A DNA stretch of 42,239 nt from Candidatus Woesearchaeota archaeon (GTDB lineage Archaea > Nanobdellota > Nanobdellia > Woesearchaeales > WAPY01): assembly GCA_049700835.1 (NCBI GenBank), contig JBNAUL010000003.1, positions 73,775-116,013 of the forward strand, written 5' to 3'. Both the position numbers and the translations under genes were made by a program. Positions 1,324 through 42,239 of this stretch are shown here, one piece after another. The notes below the pieces were generated by a model. That model made no database searches, was not told where the DNA came from, and worked only from the letters and a program-made list of their open reading frames with translations. Numbering within the stretch: the first letter of the stretch is position 1; every line of letters starts with the position of its first letter.

Positions 1324-2094
1324 TTATTTATAATAAATCCAATCATGTGTCGAATATTTTTCCTTATAAATTTCTTCTGCAAGAGTCAGCTCTTCCTTTG
1401 TTAGCTCCTCTTTCTCTAAATCTGTTTTGAAGATTTTAGGAAAACTCTCTATTAATGACTTCTCAACATCTTTCTGCTCAATCCTGTTCTTTGTTTTTTC
1501 ATCTAATGAAGTTAGTCCTTTGTCTAATAATCTTGTGTTTATAAGAAACTTCTTGATTTCTTCCTTATTTAATGATATTAAAATGCTGAAGTTGAATAGA
1601 ACAACTCCTTTTTTCCTGAATTGAACTATTAATGCAATTCTCATTTTGTTGACCAGAACTTCATTCAGGGGTTTGAATTCTGCTTTTATATTATAATTTT
1701 CCAAGGTCTTTGAGATTAAACTGAAAATCCTTTCGTAAGAGCCTATTAGGTCAAGGGGAATGTTAATGTTAGAATCATTGACTATTAAAGAGCAGTTGAT
1801 TTCAGAGTTTGGTTCTTTGTAGAATGTATCTGCATTGTTTAATGTTCTACAAACATCAACATTGAATCTTTTGCAATTTTCAATATTTATCTCTTCATTT
1901 ATCCTCTTAAAAAATCCAAAAACAACTGCTGGTTTTTTGAAATAATTTATTCTCAATGTTGGTTTTATCTTTTCTTGTTCTAACAAATGCATTTGGCATT
2001 CATCCAATGCCAACTGCTCAAGAAAAGAGTTTGTTTTTGAAACAATCAACCTGAATTTTTCTTCTTTTGAATCGCTTATCTGCTCTTCAGCCAT
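1324..2094 (-). CDS. Lipoate-protein ligase A (BPL/LplA fold), apparently with degenerate catalytic motifs
   Basis: LplA-like scaffold (QLALDE, PTLRIN..PAVVFG, EEINIENC, LTKEELTLAEEIYKEKYSTHDW) near gcvH; RRxxGGGAVYHD, KKIxG and HGT motifs are not conserved. Confidence 0.75.
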   Translation of the reverse strand: MAEEQISDSKEEKFRLIVSKTNSFLEQLALDECQMHLLEQEKIKPTLRINYFKKPAVVFGFFKRINEEINIENCKRFNVDVCRTLNNADTFYKEPNSEINCSLIVNDSNINIPLDLIGSYERIFSLISKTLENYNIKAEFKPLNEVLVNKMRIALIVQFRKKGVVLFNFSILISLNKEEIKKFLINTRLLDKGLTSLDEKTKNRIEQKDVEKSLIESFPKIFKTDLEKEELTKEELTLAEEIYKEKYSTHDWIYYK

Positions 2095-3426
2095 TTAACT
2101 GCCCTTTTTTGAGGTTATCTTTTTTAAGCAGTATTTTGCAGCAATTGATAACGGTTCTATCGCAGGGCTTGTCAATGGGGAATAAGCATTTTCAAAGTAT
2201 ATCAAATCCTTTAATCCTGAATCTCTTTTTATTGCCAAAGCAACAATATCTGCTCTCAAAGCAACATCCTCTTTGCTTATTATTTGAGCGCCTATTATTT
2301 TTTCATCGTAATCGCTTATTATTTTTACAGCGATTTCCTCTCCATTATAATATGGTTCCTTTGTCCTTGACCATATTAATGCAGATTCAAACTTGATTTT
2401 ATTTCTCTCTGCTTCATCTTCTGTTATCCCTACAGAAGCAATTTCCATTCCAAAAATCTTTGTTATAGAATTTATTATTTTTGGTTCAAAAATTATTTTT
2501 TTATCAGAAAGAGCATTGCTTGCTGCAATTTCAGATGTTTTCAATGCAATGTTTGCAAGCTGCATTGGCATTGTTTTCCCAGTTATTTTGTTTTTTATTT
2601 CAATGCAATCTCCACAGGCATAGACATCCTTTTCAGAGGTTTCAAGTTTTTCATCAACTATTATTCCAATGTTTGTTTTTATGTTTGTTTTTTTTACGAT
2701 GTTAATGTTTGGCACAACTCCTGCTGCAAGTATGAGCATATCAAAATCATAAACTCCTTTGTTGGTGAATAATCTTCCCTGCTCAACTCTAAGTATTTTT
2801 TCATTCAATTTAACCTCAACACAGTTTCTTTGCATTTCTTCAAGAATGATCTTTGACATATCGTCATCAAGCATTTGAGGCAGCACCCTGTTTTTCAATT
2901 CAATTATTTTTACCTCTAATTTTTTCTTGACAAGCGCTTCTGCGATTTCTAATCCAATGAAACCTGCGCCGATTATAAGAACTTTTCTCTTGCTGTTTTT
3001 AAGCATGAATTCAATTCTCTTTTCCAATGCTTCAAAATCCTCAAGGGTTTTAAGAGTTAGAAAATTGACATCCTTTAAACCTTCTATTTCAGGAACAAAA
3101 GCCCTGCTGCCACTGGCTATTATTAATTTATCGTACGTAATTTTTTCATTATTGTCTAATATAATGCTCTTTTCTTTTGTTCTCAATTCTTTTATTTCCC
3201 TTCCTAAAACAACCTTTATTTTGAGCTCTTCTAAGAACTCCTGCTTAAACTCAAAAATCTTTTCCTTCTTTATTTCTCCAGACAAAACATAAGGAAGAGC
3301 ACAAGGAGAATAACCTATGTTTTTTCTATTTTCTACTAATACGACTTCTGCATTTGGATTTATTTTTTTTGCTTGTACTGCAGCGTTTATTCCGCTAACT
3401 CCTGCTCCTAGGATTACTAATTTCAT
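2095..3426 (-). CDS. FAD-dependent pyridine nucleotide-disulfide oxidoreductase (CoA-disulfide reductase/NADH oxidase family)
   Basis: GAGVSG FAD motif, single redox Cys in YSPCALPY, IIGAGFIGLE NAD(P)H motif, VYACGDC, C-terminal AYSP. Confidence 0.9.
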   Translation of the reverse strand: MKLVILGAGVSGINAAVQAKKINPNAEVVLVENRKNIGYSPCALPYVLSGEIKKEKIFEFKQEFLEELKIKVVLGREIKELRTKEKSIILDNNEKITYDKLIIASGSRAFVPEIEGLKDVNFLTLKTLEDFEALEKRIEFMLKNSKRKVLIIGAGFIGLEIAEALVKKKLEVKIIELKNRVLPQMLDDDMSKIILEEMQRNCVEVKLNEKILRVEQGRLFTNKGVYDFDMLILAAGVVPNINIVKKTNIKTNIGIIVDEKLETSEKDVYACGDCIEIKNKITGKTMPMQLANIALKTSEIAASNALSDKKIIFEPKIINSITKIFGMEIASVGITEDEAERNKIKFESALIWSRTKEPYYNGEEIAVKIISDYDEKIIGAQIISKEDVALRADIVALAIKRDSGLKDLIYFENAYSPLTSPAIEPLSIAAKYCLKKITSKKGS

Positions 3427-3442
3427 AATTGAATTTTTTTGT

Positions 3443-3784
3443 TTAATCTATTTGTTTTTCTTTATTTTTTTTTATTTGGTCAATTGCTTCCTTTACAAGC
3501 TGCATGTACATTAAACTTGGGCCTCCTCCCATCATAACAGCAACCCAGCATGCTTCGAGCATTTCTTCTTCTTTTAGCCCTAAGTCCAAGCAATTCTTGA
3601 CATGGAATGCTATGCAGTACTTGCATTGAGATTTAACAGCAAGAGCCAAAGCAATCAACTCCTTTGTTTTTTTATCCAAAGCTCCATCTTCTAATGTTTG
3701 TCCGATAAAATTGTGGAACAGAGCAAGGTCTTTTGGATTTTTGCTTCCAATGTATTCTAAATTCTTATTTATTTTATTTAGCAT
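3443..3784 (-). CDS. AhpD/carboxymuconolactone decarboxylase family protein
   Basis: GALDKKTKELIALALAV..QCKYCIAFH and MGGGP motifs. Confidence 0.9.
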   Translation of the reverse strand: MLNKINKNLEYIGSKNPKDLALFHNFIGQTLEDGALDKKTKELIALALAVKSQCKYCIAFHVKNCLDLGLKEEEMLEACWVAVMMGGGPSLMYMQLVKEAIDQIKKNKEKQID

Positions 3785-3860
3785 TTTATTAAAGTCCTCA
3801 GCTATTTTCTCACCTTTTTTATTTTTTTATTTTTTTATTTTTATTTGAATATTTTGTCCT

Positions 3861-4265
3861 TTATTTTTCTTTCTTTTTTATTGTTTCTATTACTTGCTCT
3901 GCACTCTTTAAATCATTTAATTCATTTTTATCTTTTAATTTCACTTTCATAATCCATCCCAGTCCATAAGGATCCTTATTTATTAACTCTGGATTATCAA
4001 AAACCTTTCCATTAACATCCACTATTTTTCCGCTTACAGGGCTCTTTAAGCTTCCAGTCCATTTTATTGCTTCCAAGGTTACATAATTCTCTCCTCTTTT
4101 TATCTCTTTGTTCTTTTCTGGCAAATCAACAAATACAAATTGCTTCACCATTTTTGCGCCATAATCATTTACTCCAATGACTGCAACATCATTTTCCAAC
4201 CTAACCCAAGAATAATCTTCATTGTATTTTAATGATTCTGGAAATTCAAATTCTCTAAACTTCAT
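3861..4265 (-). CDS. gcvH: Glycine cleavage H-like lipoyl carrier protein
   Basis: WVR..VIGVNDYG..FVDLP, LEAIKW with the lipoyl Lys, SPVSGKIVDVN, PELINKDPYGLGWI. Confidence 0.9.
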   Translation of the reverse strand: MKFREFEFPESLKYNEDYSWVRLENDVAVIGVNDYGAKMVKQFVFVDLPEKNKEIKRGENYVTLEAIKWTGSLKSPVSGKIVDVNGKVFDNPELINKDPYGLGWIMKVKLKDKNELNDLKSAEQVIETIKKKEK

Positions 4266-4283
4266 GCTCTCTCGCCTCCTGAT

Positions 4284-5633
4284 TCAAGCTCCAAAAGATA
4301 GCAAGCTTGGTTTTAAAAGCATTATCAGCGCTAATGCAATCATCACTATTCCGCTAATGAATTTAAGTATTCTTCCTGTTCTTTCGCTTATCTTTGTGGC
4401 TCCAAGAGTTATAACAAAAATTAAAACTATGAGCAACAAAGGAATAACATAAAATATGTTGTATAAAACAAGATATAAATAATAAACGATTTTTGGAAGT
4501 TGTTTCAATGTTAGAATATTAGTATAAACTGCTGGAAAACCTGCTGTGCAAGCAAGTTCTATGAAATTAACAGAAACAGCAAGTATTATTGTCTGTAATA
4601 TTAATAGTAAAGTTATTCCTTCCTCTTTGACTGTTTTTACAATGCTCCTCATCTTTTCAATGAGTTTTGGTTTTTTGGAATCGTCTATTGTTAGTGAAAT
4701 TCCTTTTTTGTAGAAAAATGCATCTTTGACATTTACTATTCCTGCAAAGAGTGCTAACAATACAATAATAATTCTTACAAATTTTTGATATCTTAGGACC
4801 AAAAATAAGTTTAACCATGCTGCCATGAACATGAAATAAACAACTCCGGAAGCAATAACAAATATTAATCCAACAATAAGCATCTTCTTCCTTGATTTTG
4901 AATAAATTAATAAAGATAATAAAAAAGTCAATACCCAAAGAGCACAGGGGTTAAAACTGTCAAGTCCTGCAATAATTATTGTAAATATTGGCAACGATAT
5001 GCTTGAAATTTTAAAATCTCCAAGAACAGGTATTGTAACTATCTTTTCTGAACTGAGATTTTCTGATGTTTTTGTTTCGTTTGGCTTGCTGCATTCAAAG
5101 AAATTAAATTTTTTTTTGTCATAAGAATATATTGGAGCAATGTTTATGCTTATTTTTTGATTATAAGATTTTTCAACATTTGACAATGCATCTTCATAAG
5201 CATTGCAGTTAGTTGTGTATTCTTCAACAACATTCTTTATTTTTAATGCTATGCTGTCATTTTCCTTAACAAATCCAGAAATAAATTTATCACCAATAAA
5301 GGTGTTTGGAACTCCTTTTGGCTTTTGATTGTAAGCATTGCAGAATTTTTCCCATAAGTCATAGTTTTCTTGTTGAGTTACCTCAAAATAATAAACATTT
5401 ATTGGATATTCCTTGCTTAGTTTTTCCAAGTATGGTTTCTCAGCAGCACAATGTGGGCAATTGTAAGCTCCAAACATATAAACATTTATTTCCCTTGAAA
5501 AACTCTTATTGCTTGCAAAAACAGAGAGAGAATTGAGTAACATCATTAGCGTTAAAACAAAAACCATTGTTAAACTAAATAGTCCTATTATTTGCCTTTT
5601 TGTTTTTCCTTTCTTATTTTTTATATTAAACAT
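4284..5633 (-). CDS. Glutaredoxin/thioredoxin domain fused to a CcdA/DsbD-like transmembrane thiol-disulfide domain
   Basis: Signal/TM segment, CPHC redox motif with GVP cis-Pro loop, then multi-TM domain with DSFNPCA and ELACTAGFP membrane cysteines. ATG 5633 chosen as start. Confidence 0.8.
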   Translation of the reverse strand: MFNIKNKKGKTKRQIIGLFSLTMVFVLTLMMLLNSLSVFASNKSFSREINVYMFGAYNCPHCAAEKPYLEKLSKEYPINVYYFEVTQQENYDLWEKFCNAYNQKPKGVPNTFIGDKFISGFVKENDSIALKIKNVVEEYTTNCNAYEDALSNVEKSYNQKISINIAPIYSYDKKKFNFFECSKPNETKTSENLSSEKIVTIPVLGDFKISSISLPIFTIIIAGLDSFNPCALWVLTFLLSLLIYSKSRKKMLIVGLIFVIASGVVYFMFMAAWLNLFLVLRYQKFVRIIIVLLALFAGIVNVKDAFFYKKGISLTIDDSKKPKLIEKMRSIVKTVKEEGITLLLILQTIILAVSVNFIELACTAGFPAVYTNILTLKQLPKIVYYLYLVLYNIFYVIPLLLIVLIFVITLGATKISERTGRILKFISGIVMIALALIMLLKPSLLSFGA

Positions 5634-5685
5634 AATGACTACCAGCAATTTTTATTTTTTTATTTTTGAATAGTGTATTCGTTAT

Positions 5686-5736
5686 CATTTCAAAAGTTGA
5701 AACAGAATATAAATCTTTGTTTCAAAAATTGAAACA
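5686..5736. promoter_or_regulatory. Minus-strand promoter (TATA) flanked by two palindromic operator-like sites
   Basis: CATTTCAA-AAG-TTGAAACA (5686-5704) and perfect TGTTTCAA-AAA-TTGAAACA (5718-5736) flank the minus-strand TTTATAT. Confidence 0.75.
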
Positions 5737-5749
5737 TGCTTTAATTCCT

Positions 5750-6262
5750 TTATTTAACAAAATCCAGAAATTCATCTGAAAGATAAAGAATATTTTTTCC
5801 ATTTTTTCTTTCAACTCTTAAAACGTTTTTTTGAACAAGCTTTTTAATTGTTCTTGTAATTTTAACCCTGCTCAAATCAGTGTTCTTATTTAGTTCTGAC
5901 TGTTTTAGAATTCCACTATTTTTTATAAGTTCGTTAAGTACTATTCTCTCATCATGTTCAGCCAATTTCAGAAAAGCAGCGATTTCATTTTTGTTAGTTT
6001 TACCATTCTTTATTTCTTTTTCTTCTTGGTTTATATTCTTGTTTTTATACAAGGATGTAAACAATACTACAGAAGCCCCTAAAAATATTCCAAGGACAAC
6101 TAAACCTATGAGAACCAATTGAACAGGAGTTTTGCAGCTGCAGCTGCTTATTGTATAATTTTGTTGTATATAATAAAAAAGGTATATTAAAATTCCAATA
6201 AAAACAGCAAACATTCCTGTTAAAAAAAATATTTCTTTCAACTCCTTGAAAAATTTGCTCAT
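5750..6262 (-). CDS. Membrane-anchored winged-helix (MarR-like) transcriptional regulator
   Basis: Two N-terminal TM helices with a CSC loop; C-terminal wHTH (ERIVLNEL..G.LKQSEL..LSRVKITRTIKKL..VERKNGKN). Confidence 0.75.
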   Translation of the reverse strand: MSKFFKELKEIFFLTGMFAVFIGILIYLFYYIQQNYTISSCSCKTPVQLVLIGLVVLGIFLGASVVLFTSLYKNKNINQEEKEIKNGKTNKNEIAAFLKLAEHDERIVLNELIKNSGILKQSELNKNTDLSRVKITRTIKKLVQKNVLRVERKNGKNILYLSDEFLDFVK

Positions 6263-32877: not shown

Positions 32878-34626
32878 ATGTCAAGGCATCCTAAACACAC
32901 GAAGCATGAAAACTTGAAAAGCGAGAAAGGCGAAAAGATTTCTGAAGAAAGTGAGAAGAAAGAAAAAGTTAATTTCAAACAGGCTAAGAACATTAAAAAT
33001 CACATTGGAAGGCATATTAAGCATATTAAAAAGAATTCAAAATATATACTGTATGCTTTGGGAATAATTGTTGCAGTTGCTCTTTTCTTATTTTTAAAAA
33101 ATTATTTTTCAGGAATGAAAACTGCTTACAAGTCAGAGGTTGACATCTATGTTATGAGCATGTGCCCATACGGGGCTCAGGCATTGAATGGCCTAATTCC
33201 CGCTGTGAAGGAACTCAACAGTAAAATAAGGGAAGTAAAATTGAATGTATATTTCATAGCGTCTGAACAAAATGGGGTTTTTTCAAGTTTGCATGGAGAA
33301 GAAGAAGTCAAAGAGGATTTAAGGCAGGTCTGCGTCATTAAATACTATCCTAAAAACTGGCAGGACTATGTTTACTGCATTGCCCAAAATTACTATGCTT
33401 CAAACAAAGCCCCTAAGGATGTTTGGCAGGAATGCGCTAAAAATAACAAGATTGATGTTAAGAAGATTGAAAAGTGTGCAAATTCAGAAGAGGGCAAAAA
33501 ACTTCTTTCTGAGAGCATTAAAAAATCAGAAGAAGCCCAAGCGCAAGGAAGCCCAACTATATACATCAATGGGAATTTATACTATGGAGGGAGAGATATA
33601 CTTTCCTTCAAGAGGGCTATATGCACCAATTCCAACAACTCGCTTTCAGAATGCGCAAATATTCCAAAGCCAAAAAGAACAAACATGATTGTGCTGAACG
33701 ATAATAGGTGCAAAGAGTGCGATGTCACGCAACTAGTTCAATCCCTGGAATCTCTCTTCTATAACCTCAATACAACATATTTGGATTACAGTTCTGAAGA
33801 AGGGAAAAAACTCTACAATGATTTGCAAGTGATTTATCTTCCTGCAATAATTTTTGACGATAGCGTGAAAGAAGGAGAAGGGTATTCAACAGTGCAAAGA
33901 TACTTGACAACATTGAATGACAACAAGCACTACCTTTTGAGGATAGGCGCAAGTTTTGACCCAACAAAGGAGATTTGTGACAACAAGATTGATGATGACA
34001 ACAACGGAATGATTGACTGCAAGGATCCTTACTGCAGCGAACAAATCATATGCAGGGAAGAGGTAAAGAACAAGATTGATTTGTTCGTCATGAGCATGTG
34101 CCCTTATGGCGTTACAGCAGAGAGGGCATTGAAGGATTTTCTGAATGTTGTTAAAGGAGTAAATGTAAGCATACATTTCATTGCTTCAGAAAATGCTGAC
34201 GGAACATTCTCAAGCTTGCACGGAGCAAAAGAGGTTGATGAGGACATAAGGCAGGTTTGCATAATGAAGTACTACCCTGCAAAATACTTTGACTACATGT
34301 GGTGCCAAGCAGACTATTATTTGTCTGGAAAGGACATATCAACAACATACCAAGATTGCCTACAGAGCAATTCGATGGACTTGCTTTTGATTAAAAAATG
34401 CGCAGAAGGAAAAGAAGGCAAGGAATTGTTAAGGGAAAACATGAAACTCACAGATGCGTTGGGAATAGGAGCATCTCCAACATGGCTTGTGAACAACAAG
34501 TATGAATTTTCAGGATTGGACGCTTCAACTATTCAGAAAAACTTTTGTGCTTACAACAATGTTTCAGGTTGCGAGAAACAGATAAATGGATCTGCAACGC
34601 AGACCACAACAGGCTCTTGTGGTTAA
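32878..34626 (+). CDS. Membrane-anchored exported protein with two GILT-like/thioredoxin-fold domains
   Basis: N-terminal TM; duplicated VMSMCPYG...FSSLHG..EV.ED.RQVC..KYYP...SPT..N; intervening EICDNKIDDDNNGMIDCKDPYC motif. Confidence 0.8.
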   Translation: MSRHPKHTKHENLKSEKGEKISEESEKKEKVNFKQAKNIKNHIGRHIKHIKKNSKYILYALGIIVAVALFLFLKNYFSGMKTAYKSEVDIYVMSMCPYGAQALNGLIPAVKELNSKIREVKLNVYFIASEQNGVFSSLHGEEEVKEDLRQVCVIKYYPKNWQDYVYCIAQNYYASNKAPKDVWQECAKNNKIDVKKIEKCANSEEGKKLLSESIKKSEEAQAQGSPTIYINGNLYYGGRDILSFKRAICTNSNNSLSECANIPKPKRTNMIVLNDNRCKECDVTQLVQSLESLFYNLNTTYLDYSSEEGKKLYNDLQVIYLPAIIFDDSVKEGEGYSTVQRYLTTLNDNKHYLLRIGASFDPTKEICDNKIDDDNNGMIDCKDPYCSEQIICREEVKNKIDLFVMSMCPYGVTAERALKDFLNVVKGVNVSIHFIASENADGTFSSLHGAKEVDEDIRQVCIMKYYPAKYFDYMWCQADYYLSGKDISTTYQDCLQSNSMDLLLIKKCAEGKEGKELLRENMKLTDALGIGASPTWLVNNKYEFSGLDASTIQKNFCAYNNVSGCEKQINGSATQTTTGSCG

Positions 34627-39830: not shown

Positions 39831-42239
39831 ATGAAGATTAAGTTTGAGCATGCAAGCTTTTTAAAGAGTGGATTAGTTTTTATTTTGTTTGTTTTTGTTC
39901 TTTTCTCAGGTTTTTTGGTTTTGGCTGTTGATAGTAGTCCTCCTGTTACTAGCATTAAGGGAGTTCTTCCTAATGGTTCTTTGTATTCTTTTGGTTCTTT
40001 GGCTTATGCAAATTATGTTAATATTAGTTTGAATTGTTCTGATACTGGGGGTGGTGTGTGTAAAAAAACTTTATATTGTACTGATACGCAAAACACTTGC
40101 AATCCAGATCTTAATTATTCCAATCAGATTCAAATTTATACTAATGAGTATGCTGTTCGTTATGTAAGGTTTTATAGTGTTGATTCAGCTAATAATGCTG
40201 AGAATGTTAGTTACAGAATTGTTAAGTTATGGGCTCCGGATTATTGTCCTTATTTGAGGGTTGGTTGGGATGGTGTTTCTGTTGGTTGTTGTTTGTCTGC
40301 TGGTCAGTGTTTGGTTAGTTCTGGTGGTGATGTTGGTAAGCATTTGGCTAGTGATTATTTTTCTGCTGTTAGTGTTTCTGATTTGCCTAGGTGTGTTGAT
40401 TCTGGGGAGTTTATTGGTGATTTTTATTGTGATGGTGGTGTTTGGTCTTCTAGGACTAAGTTTGTTGCTTTGGCTTTGTTGAATTTTACTAGGGAGAGGA
40501 ATGTTGGTGATTATAGTTTGTTTTGTGATTCTCCTGATGTTGTTGGTAATTTTTTGGATTATGAGCCTTTTAGTAATTTGGTTGGTTTGGATTGTGTTAG
40601 GGGTTTGAGGGGTGTTTCTTGTTTTAATAGTTTTTGTGTTTTGAGGTTTAATGATTCTGGTGTTGAGCGTGTTTTGGTTGGTACTGCTTTGGCTTATCCT
40701 GTTAATAATAGGAGTGATTTTTTGCCTTTTAATTTTTTGAGGGATGTTTTGAATAAGAGTGTTGATTATTGTGATGGTGCTGTTGGTGGTGTTGGTTGGC
40801 GTAGGTGTAGGTTTGGGGATGTTTGGTATAATTCTGAGTTGGAGAGTGTTGTTTTTTCTGATTTTAATTTTTCTTTTGTGAGGCCTAGTTTTTGGGAGAA
40901 TCCTTTTTTGTTTTTGGTTGGTTTTGTTAGGGGTTTGTTTGGTGGTAGGGGTGGTGGTTTTGGTGTTGGTTCTTTGGGTGGTGTTGTTAGGTTTGATAGG
41001 TTGTTTGTTTTGGAGCGTGGTGTTGATCCTGGTAGGAGGGTTTTTGTTTTTGCTGATAGGTTTGGGAATGTTAGTTTTTTGGTTGGTAATTATTCTGGTT
41101 TTGTTAGTGATTTGTGTTCTGATTTTAATAGGTTGAGTGAGGGTAGTTGTGTTAATTTTGTTGGTTGTGAGTTTGATGTTTTTGATTTTGAGCGTGATTT
41201 TGAGGATAGGGTTTCTTTGTTGGATTTTTGGGTTAATATTACTGGTATGTTGAGGGTTGGTGATGTTTCTTATTCTTCTGATAGTTGTTTTAATTGTAAG
41301 AAGGATGTTGGTGAGGTTGGTGTTGATTGTGGTGGTTCTTGTAGGCCTTGTAAGTGTGTTGATTGGGATGGTGATGGTTTTGGTGTTTATTGTGTTAATG
41401 GTGCTGATTGTGATGATTTTAATCCTTTTGTTAATTTTGGTGTGAGTGAGGTTTGTAATAATGGAATTGATGATGATTGTGATGGTTTTGTTGATTTTGA
41501 TGATTCTGATTGTAAGTTTTGCGGTAATGGTGTTGTTGATTCTGTTAGTGAGGAGTGTGATGGTTCTGATTTTGTTGGTAAGAGTTGTGTTGATTTTGGT
41601 TTTTCTGGTGGTGTTTTGGAGTGTAAGAGTGATTGTAAGTTTGATTTTAGTGGTTGTTTTGTTAGTGTTTGTGATAATGATGGTGTTTGTGAGTTAGATA
41701 GGGGTGAGAATTCTAGTAATTGTGCGAATGATTGTGGGCAGCAGGAGGTGTGTGCTTTGAATAATGAGTTTTGTCGTAGTGCTGCTGATTGTTGTTCTTT
41801 TTATGCTTTTGGTAGTACTTGTTTTTATGGTGCTGTTTGTAATTTGAATGGTAGTGGTAGGTGTAGTTTTGTTAGTAAGGTTTGTGGTGCTGGTGAGGTT
41901 TGCACTGCTAGTGGTTGTAATTCCTCTCAGCCAAGCACTTGTGGTAATGGAAAGTGTGATTCTTCTAGTGGAGAAACTCCTGCTAATTGTCCTAAGGATT
42001 GCATAAGGTGTGAAAATATTAATATTATTAGTGATTATCTTGATTGTTATCGTTATCATCCTAGATGGGGATGGGGATGTATTATTATTCATCATCATAT
42101 TGATCATCCACGTTGTGTTTATTCTTGGAAGAGAAGTTATTCCTATTATTCTCCTTTTTGTTGGACTTTTTATGAAGCTACTCCTTATTATAATGGTTAT
42201 TGTCCTGATGGAGGAGTTTGTTGTTATACAAAATCAACT
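39831..42239 (+). CDS. Large secreted Cys-rich surface protein (3' end runs off the window)
   Basis: Not in the ORF track. GAGG SD, ATG 39831, frame open to the window end. Signal peptide; Ig-like DSSPPVT..RFYSVDSANNAE; DVGEVGVDCGGSC; DGDGFG..DCDD..EVCNNGIDDDCDG; CGNGVVD..EECDG; CGNGKCD..GETPANCPKDC. Confidence 0.88.
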   Translation, partial: MKIKFEHASFLKSGLVFILFVFVLFSGFLVLAVDSSPPVTSIKGVLPNGSLYSFGSLAYANYVNISLNCSDTGGGVCKKTLYCTDTQNTCNPDLNYSNQIQIYTNEYAVRYVRFYSVDSANNAENVSYRIVKLWAPDYCPYLRVGWDGVSVGCCLSAGQCLVSSGGDVGKHLASDYFSAVSVSDLPRCVDSGEFIGDFYCDGGVWSSRTKFVALALLNFTRERNVGDYSLFCDSPDVVGNFLDYEPFSNLVGLDCVRGLRGVSCFNSFCVLRFNDSGVERVLVGTALAYPVNNRSDFLPFNFLRDVLNKSVDYCDGAVGGVGWRRCRFGDVWYNSELESVVFSDFNFSFVRPSFWENPFLFLVGFVRGLFGGRGGGFGVGSLGGVVRFDRLFVLERGVDPGRRVFVFADRFGNVSFLVGNYSGFVSDLCSDFNRLSEGSCVNFVGCEFDVFDFERDFEDRVSLLDFWVNITGMLRVGDVSYSSDSCFNCKKDVGEVGVDCGGSCRPCKCVDWDGDGFGVYCVNGADCDDFNPFVNFGVSEVCNNGIDDDCDGFVDFDDSDCKFCGNGVVDSVSEECDGSDFVGKSCVDFGFSGGVLECKSDCKFDFSGCFVSVCDNDGVCELDRGENSSNCANDCGQQEVCALNNEFCRSAADCCSFYAFGSTCFYGAVCNLNGSGRCSFVSKVCGAGEVCTASGCNSSQPSTCGNGKCDSSSGETPANCPKDCIRCENINIISDYLDCYRYHPRWGWGCIIIHHHIDHPRCVYSWKRSYSYYSPFCWTFYEATPYYNGYCPDGGVCCYTKST

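Follow-up and report, generated by a model that had tools for sequence, protein, structure and literature searches.

The window (42,239 nucleotides, the whole stretch of DNA that was analysed) comes from a Candidatus Woesearchaeota archaeon and carries six co-oriented genes on its minus strand that may together form a thiol-disulfide relay across the cell membrane. The first gene encodes a membrane-bound regulator of 170 residues (5750-6262), in which two transmembrane (TM) helices are followed by a C-terminal winged helix-turn-helix (wHTH). It is followed by a putative operator and promoter with palindromes and a TATA-like box (5686-5736), and by the gene for a membrane protein of 454 residues, here called MemGrx (4284-5648), which consists of a signal-anchor, a thioredoxin (Trx)/glutaredoxin (Grx)-like domain with a CPHC motif and a domain of six TM helices. 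The next genes encode an H-protein of the glycine cleavage system, GcvH (3861-4265; PF01597, E 2.6e-37), and a protein of the AhpD/CMD type with the motif CKYC (3443-3784; PF02627, E 1.8e-18). The last two encode a pyridine-nucleotide disulfide oxidoreductase of 443 residues, which belongs to the group of coenzyme A-disulfide reductase (CoADR) and NADH oxidase (Nox) (2095-3426; Pyr_redox_2, E 3.5e-57), and a degenerate paralogue with the LplA fold (1324-2094; PF21948, E 4.3e-23). From the regulator to the LplA-fold gene, the intergenic gaps are 101, 18, 76, 16 and 0 nucleotides. All six open reading frames (ORFs) are present, and the gene identities proposed in an earlier note on this DNA are supported by the family assignments.

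The stretch has a G+C content of about 31% and is archaeal, with genes for GatD/GatE, CDC48, RNase P p30 and TruD. For one of the encoded proteins, the closest relative with a name carries a Candidatus Woesearchaeota label (73% identity). The genome that contains the window measures 1.07 Mb in four contigs and is 98.66% complete. The stretch is found in two public DNA sequencing runs, both hot-spring metagenomes and from two studies; the search for runs listed no RNA data set that contains it.

Conservation of the gene neighbourhood

The neighbourhood was compared in a sample of 401 genomes of the phylum, 82 of which have PF01597 matches. Outside the window there are 46 strong PF01597 places (E<=3e-22), and 44 of these, each with 8 kb on either side, make up the locus census. 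The two remaining places belong to unpublished genomes (G359 and G243). Unpublished genomes are excluded from the census and from all alignments; these two are included in the tallies for PF01597 and GcvT and in the phylum-wide search with the TM domain of MemGrx, which also includes the unpublished genomes G395, G242 and G321. The window proteins served as queries against the ORFs of each locus, as did LipA, LplB and further sequences from relatives, and partner genes were counted within 6 kb of GcvH. The counts are lower bounds, several contigs stopping inside the cluster, and with related genomes not being independent they describe recurrence across families rather than statistics. A second set consists of 80 GcvH loci from a species-level genome collection, 17 with archaeal and 63 with bacterial labels.

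MemGrx lies near GcvH in 28 of the 44 loci and the flavoprotein in 26, both being present in 21; at least one of MemGrx, the flavoprotein and AhpD is found in 33. The lipoylation genes are represented by LplA (22/44), LplB (Lip_prot_lig_C, 16/44) and a LipA-like radical-SAM protein (15/44). The membrane wHTH, which flanks the membrane protein, is near GcvH in 18 loci, a small CPHC Trx protein in 15 and AhpD in 11. All partner genes are co-directional. The combination of gcvH with a membrane Trx/two-Cys protein, a flavoprotein and lipoylation genes is thus conserved across families of the phylum and, because it recurs in many of them, is far beyond chance. A lack of conserved synteny, which the earlier note had named as grounds for refuting its idea, is not what was seen. 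The eight loci without any partner are exactly those with gcvT beside gcvH. GcvT has matches in 18 of the 401 genomes, none of them a genome with the cluster. In the species-level collection, GcvH adjoins MemGrx in 9 of the 17 archaeal-labelled loci, under the names Woesearchaeota, Undinarchaeota, 'uncultured archaeon' and some 'Methanosarcinales' labels that are not verifiable; it does so in none of the 63 bacterial-labelled loci, in which the neighbours are not conserved.

The cluster also occurs in parts. Mini-clusters of wHTH, MemGrx and AhpD without an adjacent GcvH are found at L190, L191 and L198 (genomes G116, G214 and G363) and at L084, while flavoprotein, AhpD and GcvH lie together away from MemGrx at L057, L062 and L074, the contigs of L057 and L062 ending within the stretch examined. 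The stable core is the regulator with MemGrx, to which are added AhpD, GcvH with its flavoprotein and lipoylation genes, or the two together. This variable recruitment of GcvH and AhpD supports a functional tie of each to the membrane protein, an adjacent GcvH not being obligatory. Some of the mini-clusters that have neither GcvH nor flavoprotein come from genomes with a canonical gcvT-gcvH pair elsewhere. In one relative, the regulator gene has a fragment of a Tn3-family transposase (PF01526, 3e-22) as its immediate neighbour (L073:10772-11134).

The H-protein and its lipoylation genes

The GcvH of the window scores 127.9 bits with PF01597 (cut-off 22.2) and 133.1 bits with NF002270, above the cut-off of 117, and falls just under that of TIGR00527 (108.9 against 115.85 bits). 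The lipoyl-bearing Lys of its EAIKW motif is kept in 53 of 53 aligned homologues. The GcvH tree groups the copies of canonical glycine cleavage systems in a single clade (support 100/98) that excludes the cluster copies. A six-frame search of the whole genome with GcvT (PF01571), GcvP (PF02347) and E2 (PF00198) gave no match at E<=0.01, each model being matched in control genomes. The sole lipoyl-domain match in the genome is the GcvH of the window. Pyr_redox_2 matches the cluster flavoprotein, a protein of 322 residues with the size of a thioredoxin reductase and, weakly, a non-Lpd protein of 461 residues; no classical Lpd is among these matches. Since GcvT, GcvP, E2 and classical Lpd are all missing, GcvH is the only lipoyl protein of the genome. 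The lack of gcvP, gcvT and 2-oxoacid dehydrogenase genes, which the earlier note had reported for the window, therefore holds for the genome as well, and the full glycine cleavage system that might have used this H-protein was not found there, GcvT, GcvP and Lpd being missing.

The genome does have the means to lipoylate GcvH. Lipoyl synthase LipA is present (317 bits, cut-off 310) and lies in an intact LipA-LplA-LplB operon outside the window (G000:C1:196912-198840, minus strand), with a second copy of LplA (C1:197214-197972) between LipA and LplB. In most relatives these three genes stand in this order inside the cluster. In the genus of the window they are detached, and a degenerate LplA paralogue stays behind. 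This protein still has the fold of the catalytic domain (PF21948, 82.8 bits, cut-off 27) and reaches 68-101 bits with the NCBIfam ligase models, against cut-offs of 280-550. In an alignment with seven intact homologues, its RRxxGGGAVxHD motif is replaced by CRTLNNADTFYKE, the position of the GGGAVxHD loop reading NNADTFYKE; KKISGNAQ becomes KMRIALIVQ, with loss of the Lys of KISGxAQ, and QHGT becomes FNFS, together with a 12-residue deletion. The motif names are those of the LplA literature. All seven homologues, including the C1 copy of the same genome, retain every ligase motif, and the LplA-fold protein of another genome of the genus has the same motif losses and the same deletion. Identity to the cluster LplAs of relatives is about 30% for the window copy and 46-60% for the C1 copy. 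Judged by these motif losses, the window protein is unlikely to be an active ligase. The earlier note, which counted an LplA-fold protein among the genes of its relay operon, is corrected on this point, the intact LipA-LplA-LplB operon lying on another contig.

The flavoprotein

The flavoprotein has both a Pyr_redox_2 domain and a Pyr_redox_dim domain (3.6e-11). Its best NCBIfam model is TIGR03385, the CoA-disulfide reductase (319.4 bits, below the cut-off of 578.8); it also stays below the cut-offs of PRK09564 (283 against 458) and of the Lpd model TIGR01350, which matches only from residue 65 (119.6 against 408.8 bits). The only Cys of its N-terminal region is Cys42, in the sequence YSPCALPY, and an Lpd-type CxxxxC is missing. 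Of 25 cluster homologues, 24 keep Cys42, and it is aligned in the best relative in the PDB, the CoADR of P. horikoshii (3kd9, 8e-56). The other solved relatives include CoADR, NADH oxidase and NADH peroxidase (Npx) enzymes as well as the CoA-persulfide reductase 8a56, and are NAD(P)H-consuming reductases. No rhodanese domain was found on the protein in a Pfam scan. On these scores, the flavoprotein can be placed only in the wider one-Cys CoADR/Nox/Npx group. It is presumed to be an NAD(P)H:lipoyl-GcvH oxidoreductase.

In two of the 44 loci, a DUF169 protein (PF02596, 3e-30) replaces the flavoprotein between GcvH and LipA (L055:8378-9142 and L067). This protein may be an alternative reductase of lipoyl-GcvH.

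The membrane thiol protein

MemGrx begins with a signal-anchor, which is followed by an extracytoplasmic domain of Trx/Grx fold bearing the CPHC motif, a linker and the 6-TM domain. The whole protein has no Pfam match at E<=0.01 and matches TIGR02196 at 2.8e-5. Among 8000 scored candidates, 790 are homologues at E<=1e-5, and a profile of the TM domain alone recovers 4556 clusters (50% identity) at E<=0.001. Where the homologues are named at all in their sources, it is only as 'glutaredoxin domain-containing' or 'thiol-disulfide isomerase'. Four Cys are invariant in the alignments, namely the external CxxC pair, one Cys in the FNPCA motif of TM1 and one in the ELxCTAGFP motif of TM4, the two TM Cys being kept in 46 of 46 sequences. 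The external pair reads CPHC in 16 of 17 members of one alignment, and the first CxxC does so in 16 of 24 and 63 of 75 members of two locus sets.

The structural statements made here rest on predicted models throughout. In the AlphaFold2 (AF2) models, which have a predicted local distance difference test score (pLDDT) of 77 for the whole protein and of 85.6 for the TM domain (predicted TM-score 0.82), the signal-anchor, the Trx fold and six TM helices are seen, with C31 and C163 (TM-domain numbering) at breaks of TM1 and TM4. The loop between TM3 and TM4 is rich in Lys and Arg and is predicted to be cytoplasmic by the positive-inside rule. A Foldseek search with the TM domain has CcdA (5vkv) as its first match (E 0.044, probability 0.95), the next match being at 0.20. 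The named neighbours of the domain in the ESM Atlas are clusters of SfLAP, DsbD_2 and DsbD_TM (0.89-0.91). In a PDB profile search with the alignment of the whole protein, the best 60 of 181 matches were all Trx, Grx or DsbA-type structures aligned to the N-terminal domain. The TM part has no NCBIfam match, and a search of the genome with PF02683 does not match the MemGrx gene. Taken together, the TM domain is quite likely a distant CcdA-like domain, its membership of that family not being established.

Searches of this genome for canonical DsbD_TM and for VKOR gave no match, and DsbB was not searched for. In the 401 genomes, DsbD_TM occurs in 207, in none of the four of the window's family and in about 12 of the about 31 genomes with the cluster; the sample is the one that includes the unpublished genomes. 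A complementary distribution of the cluster and canonical CcdA was considered and gave no clear pattern.

Two groups of proteins related to MemGrx were also seen. A paralogous subfamily of the TM domain, with EFVCSAAIPA in place of ELxCTAGFP, is common in the phylum (L199-L202), and shorter proteins of about 240-280 residues carry the TM domain without the long N-terminal Trx region. In-frame stops were flagged in some matches of the TM family. At the four places checked (L199-L202), the stops were not located; the tblastn alignments of L199-L201 run uninterrupted to about query residue 246, and that of L202 ends at query residue 203.

AhpD, CPHC lipoproteins and possible clients

The AhpD of the window scores 66.7 bits with PF02627 (cut-off 23) and 45.6 bits with the AhpD core model TIGR00778 (cut-off 27.8). 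Its closest relative of known structure is 5dik, 'Alkyl hydroperoxide reductase AhpD' (4e-21). The CxxC, CKYC in the window, is present in 13 of 13 homologues. AhpD is encoded in only a quarter of the census loci (11/44) and occurs in mini-clusters without GcvH, so the chain from GcvH through AhpD to the membrane protein, which the earlier note had drawn as a fixed sequence, is one variant and not the rule, with AhpD as an accessory. The position of AhpD is taken in many relatives by small Trx proteins, 17 of 22 with CPHC. All of them carry lipoprotein-type signal peptides; for this reason they are regarded as extracytoplasmic partners, and the idea that they are cytoplasmic substitutes for AhpD was rejected.

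The peroxiredoxin of the genome (365 bits, cut-off 211) lies away from the cluster (G000:C1:261899-263714; L003:731-2546), flanked by a flavin-reductase-rubredoxin fusion and a desulfoferrodoxin. This is a typical oxidative-stress operon of an anaerobe, in a DPANN-type genome.

Directly downstream of the cluster, the minus strand encodes two paralogous small proteins with six and seven Cys (451-1026 and 3-413). Both have an N-terminal TM or pilin-like anchor and the common motif FC..(I/V)D..G...C.DK(I/V)PCF. Both may be clients of the relay, as may others elsewhere in the window. The plus strand encodes a membrane-anchored protein of 582 residues (32878-34626) that has 21 Cys and two GILT/DsbA-like domains, each with SMCPYG, a single Cys where CxxC is usual; GILT/DsbA-like genes adjoin MemGrx in L086 and L145. 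Another plus-strand ORF, open-ended and 803 residues long (39831-42239), has 62 Cys (7.7%) and a MopE-like metal-binding motif, and lies in a stretch of extreme skew (GC skew 0.65, AT skew -0.45).

The regulator and its operator

The two TM helices of the regulator enclose a short outer loop with a CxC (SCSCK) and are followed by the cytoplasmic wHTH. The wHTH (residues 104-161) matches DUF7343 (4e-6), MarR (2.6e-4) and HTH_24 weakly, and also ArsR, Lrs14 and Sta1 models. Of 24 aligned regulator homologues, 20 have the CxC in the outer loop and all keep at least one Cys.

In the region between the regulator and MemGrx, positions 5718-5736 form an exact palindrome, TGTTTCAA-N3-TTGAAACA, and a second copy with two mismatches stands at 5686-5704. 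Between the two copies lies the TATA-like TTTATATT, read on the minus strand. At up to three mismatches, the palindrome has six matches in the window against 2.16 expected, and none of 100 shuffles reaches six. The arrangement of TTTCA-N6-TGAAA, a TATA-like box and a TTTCA half-site is found in all 14 regulator-MemGrx intergenic regions examined, which come from several families, and it backs the dedicated membrane-bound regulator proposed earlier. The palindrome would be the binding site of the regulator, and the outer-loop CxC may sense the external redox state.

Proposed relay and alternatives

The operon may encode a lipoyl-protein-based transmembrane thiol-disulfide relay in which electrons pass from NAD(P)H through the flavoprotein and lipoyl-GcvH, with or without AhpD, to the Cys pair in the membrane and on to the external CPHC domains; we give this reading an even chance. 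It builds on the DsbD/CcdA relays, on the mycobacterial chain that links a lipoyl protein to AhpD and on the antioxidant GcvH-L of Staphylococcus aureus. GcvH would be lipoylated by the LipA-LplA-LplB module, which is encoded elsewhere in this genome and inside the cluster in most relatives, and the dithiolane of its lipoyl group would be reduced with NAD(P)H by the one-Cys flavoprotein of CoADR/Nox type. The redox potential of lipoamide is close to that of thioredoxin, so the lipoyl arm is a chemically reasonable donor. On the cytoplasmic side, the reduced arm could pass electrons to the TM1/TM4 Cys pair of the CcdA-like domain, either directly or, in the variants that have AhpD, among them the window, through the CxxC of AhpD. 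The membrane Cys pair would then reduce the fused external CPHC domain and, in many relatives, a separate CPHC lipoprotein as well. These external domains may keep exported Cys-rich proteins correctly paired or repair them. In a side branch, AhpD may feed the peroxiredoxin of the genome, as in the mycobacterial Lpd-DlaT-AhpD-AhpC chain. The membrane wHTH, through its external CxC, probably senses the thiol redox state outside the cell and controls the operon through the palindromes that bracket the TATA-like box. The reducing direction of the whole relay is the one that we infer.

Several observations weigh against such a relay. The CcdA-like status of the membrane domain is weak by every single measure. 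Against Pfam TM families, none of 17 members has a match at E<=1. In VIA comparisons, CcdA reaches Z scores of 7.8-8.2 with 184-187 of 224 residues aligned (root-mean-square deviation 4.6 at Z 7.8), but these are tied with partial matches to the LeuT fold and to Rnf/Nqr and lie within the noise of helical bundles. With a profile of 17 canonical CcdA ORFs of the phylum, hhalign gives E 0.009 with both Cys in register, although at a probability of 4.5%, and an hhalign comparison of the two halves of the domain, in search of an internal 3+3 TM repeat, found none (E 0.32-0.47). The 'CcdA/DsbD-like' label of the earlier note is thus plausible without amounting to proven membership of the family: the six modelled TM helices and the Cys in TM1 and TM4 agree with it, a Pfam match is missing, and CcdA is the best but a weak match in the fold and profile comparisons. 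The flavoprotein scores under every NCBIfam equivalog cut-off and could simply be an NADH oxidase, and two loci have DUF169 in its place. MemGrx stands without GcvH in bacteria, and genomes of the phylum with a canonical glycine cleavage system carry strong MemGrx orthologues away from GcvH. An adjacent GcvH is therefore no requirement of the membrane protein, which may draw on thioredoxin instead; the present genome, too, has a thioredoxin besides the 322-residue protein of thioredoxin-reductase size. What the analysis shows are the identities of the genes, the lone GcvH, the conserved linkage, the invariant Cys and Lys, a model of the topology and the conservation of the operator; the electron-transfer steps and their direction, the pairing of regulator and operator and the clients are all inferred. 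Finally, CPHC is the active-site motif of the oxidase DsbA of E. coli, and an oxidising direction would fit it.

Electrons might in fact flow inwards, in a quinone-independent pathway of disulfide formation in which they pass from exported Cys through the CPHC domains and the membrane Cys pair to oxidised lipoyl-GcvH and on to the flavoprotein, with NAD+ (E3-like) or O2 (Nox-like) as the final acceptor. We consider this unlikely, even though the DsbA motif dominates the external domains (16/24, 63/75 and, among the small proteins, 17/22), Cys-rich membrane-anchored proteins are encoded directly downstream on the same strand (451-1026 with 6 Cys, 3-413 with 7), the 803-residue ORF has 62 Cys, and proteins like DsbA/GILT stand beside MemGrx in L086 and L145. 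VKOR was not found in the genome, DsbB not having been searched for; H-proteins and E2 normally accept electrons on oxidised lipoyl and are re-oxidised by NAD+, and Nox enzymes belong to the same flavoprotein group. A CxxC dipeptide alone, however, does not set the redox potential, transfer from a DsbA-like centre to lipoyl would be uphill, and the context of AhpD and peroxiredoxin points to reduction. To our knowledge, all characterised DsbD/CcdA-type proteins export reductant. A related and equally doubtful proposition concerns DPANN-type archaea without quinones, VKOR or canonical CcdA. In these, a lipoylated H-protein would take the place of thioredoxin, or of quinone, as the redox partner on the cytoplasmic side of a new CcdA-like family, its swinging lipoyl arm extending to the Cys pair within the membrane. 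In the boldest form, an inward relay would be the disulfide-generating system so far missing from such organisms: surface proteins would be oxidised by the CPHC domains outside, and NAD+ or O2 would receive the electrons through the one-Cys flavoprotein.

It is also improbable that the operon holds two separate modules with only a stress promoter in common, one running from the flavoprotein through lipoyl-GcvH and AhpD to peroxiredoxin and the other a membrane exporter of reductant fed by thioredoxin. Such a division would agree with the thioredoxin in the genome, with the occurrence of MemGrx alone in bacteria, with the three loci in which the flavoprotein, AhpD and GcvH lie apart from MemGrx (L057, L062 and L074) and with a peroxiredoxin whose operon also encodes a rubredoxin-flavin reductase and desulfoferrodoxin, and the Lpd-DlaT-AhpD-AhpC chain of Mycobacterium tuberculosis is a precedent for its first module in the excerpts of PMC12028322. 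GcvH, however, adjoins MemGrx in 28 of the 44 loci, about 20 of which are without AhpD, so an AhpD peroxidase chain cannot explain the commonest arrangement. Of the three loci with the separate arrangement, L057 and L062 are on contigs that end within the stretch examined. That GcvH is a protected store, a carrier or a sacrificial antioxidant for scavenged lipoate, with no electron partners in the cluster, is very unlikely. DPANN-type organisms are expected to scavenge cofactors, which would suit a store; the genome, on the other hand, has no E2 or other lipoyl acceptor, LipA is present so that the cofactor is made on the protein, and the tight linkage to the flavoprotein and the two-Cys membrane protein would be left unexplained. 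The model for a store is the GcvH-L of Staphylococcus aureus, an H-protein outside the glycine cleavage system that has a dedicated ligase and gives resistance to oxidative stress, as excerpts of PMC12440151 describe it, but no SirTM or macrodomain was found among the cluster ORFs scanned, the scan of the cluster being incomplete. A role in the handling of sulfane sulfur or polysulfide, in which the CoADR-like protein would reduce persulfide or sulfur and GcvH would carry sulfur in the manner of LbpA, is highly improbable. It draws on the lipoate-binding, GcvH-like LbpA proteins with dedicated ligases that excerpts of PMC6067878 place in sulfur oxidation, on the CoA-persulfide reductase 8a56 among the solved relatives of the flavoprotein and on the hot-spring metagenome runs in which the DNA is found. 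But no Hdr-, DsrE- or TusA-like family was found among the neighbours scanned, the flavoprotein has no rhodanese domain, and neither the external Trx domains nor AhpD would be given anything to do.

If the transmembrane relay proposed here operates, the H-protein and lipoate would serve a function beyond glycine cleavage and the 2-oxoacid dehydrogenase complexes across an archaeal radiation, and the retention of LipA, LplA, LplB and GcvH in reduced genomes without a lipoate-dependent enzyme would be explained. It would define a large, unannotated family of two-Cys membrane proteins in many bacteria and archaea. It would also make testable the upkeep of a Cys-rich envelope in ultrasmall, surface-dependent archaea that have no quinone-based Dsb system. 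With an external CxC and a clear operator, the membrane-tethered regulator offers a compact candidate for a redox sensor of the archaeal envelope.

Comparison with known systems

Full-text literature searches gave no published description of this gene combination, in agreement with the earlier note, which knew of none, and in the Woesearchaeota comparative-genomics paper PMC8421398 the relevant terms are absent from the main text, its supplements lying outside the search. The individual parts of the cluster do, however, resemble several known systems. MemGrx shares with DsbD, CcdA and ScsB a core of six predicted TM helices with one Cys in TM1 and one in TM4, and an extracytoplasmic Trx-fold domain with CxxC, either fused or as a separate lipoprotein. 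CcdA is also the best, though weak, structural and profile match of its TM domain. Unlike these proteins, the TM domain is not matched by Pfam DsbD_TM (PF02683) or DsbD_2 (PF13386) in any of 17 members, its FNPCA and ELxCTAGFP motifs differ from the CcdA profile of the phylum, and the external motif is CPHC. The donor of DsbD, CcdA and ScsB is thioredoxin, whereas in these DPANN-type archaea the adjacent presumed donor is a lipoylated H-protein with its own flavoprotein.

The chain of M. tuberculosis, in which electrons pass from NADH through Lpd, DlaT and AhpD to AhpC, is the precedent for transfer from a lipoyl protein to AhpD. As far as the excerpts of PMC12028322 go, the two systems are alike in that a flavoprotein, a lipoyl protein and an AhpD adaptor are encoded together, with the same proposed order of electron transfer. 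They differ in the carrier, which is a free H-protein here and an E2 there, and in the flavoprotein, which has one Cys (CoADR/Nox type) here and the CxxxxC of Lpd there. AhpD is optional here (11/44), the conserved partner being the membrane protein, and peroxiredoxin is encoded elsewhere.

The GcvH-L-LplA2-SirTM-macrodomain operon of S. aureus and Streptococcus resembles the cluster in having an H-protein with a second function, dedicated lipoylation genes and a link to oxidative-stress defence, within what is excerpted from PMC12440151. The cluster ORFs scanned here include no sirtuin or macrodomain, the organism has no other lipoyl protein, and the partners are a flavoprotein and a membrane thiol protein. 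Similarly, the LbpA-sHdr systems, in the excerpts of PMC6067878, have a lipoate-binding protein resembling GcvH, which comes with maturation genes of its own and works outside the classical complexes. Among the neighbours scanned here there are no Hdr-like genes, the partners are different, and the GcvH of the window passes the NF002270 cut-off.

In the pneumococcal CcdA-Etrx-MsrAB system, a membrane electron transporter with thioredoxin as its donor feeds surface lipoproteins of the thioredoxin family. The CPHC lipoproteins of the relatives are comparable to these; no Msr gene was found among the cluster ORFs scanned. The kinds of system that meet in this cluster, the DsbD/CcdA-type relay and the lipoyl-AhpD chain, are known, and it is the donor, the membrane family and the regulator that are new.

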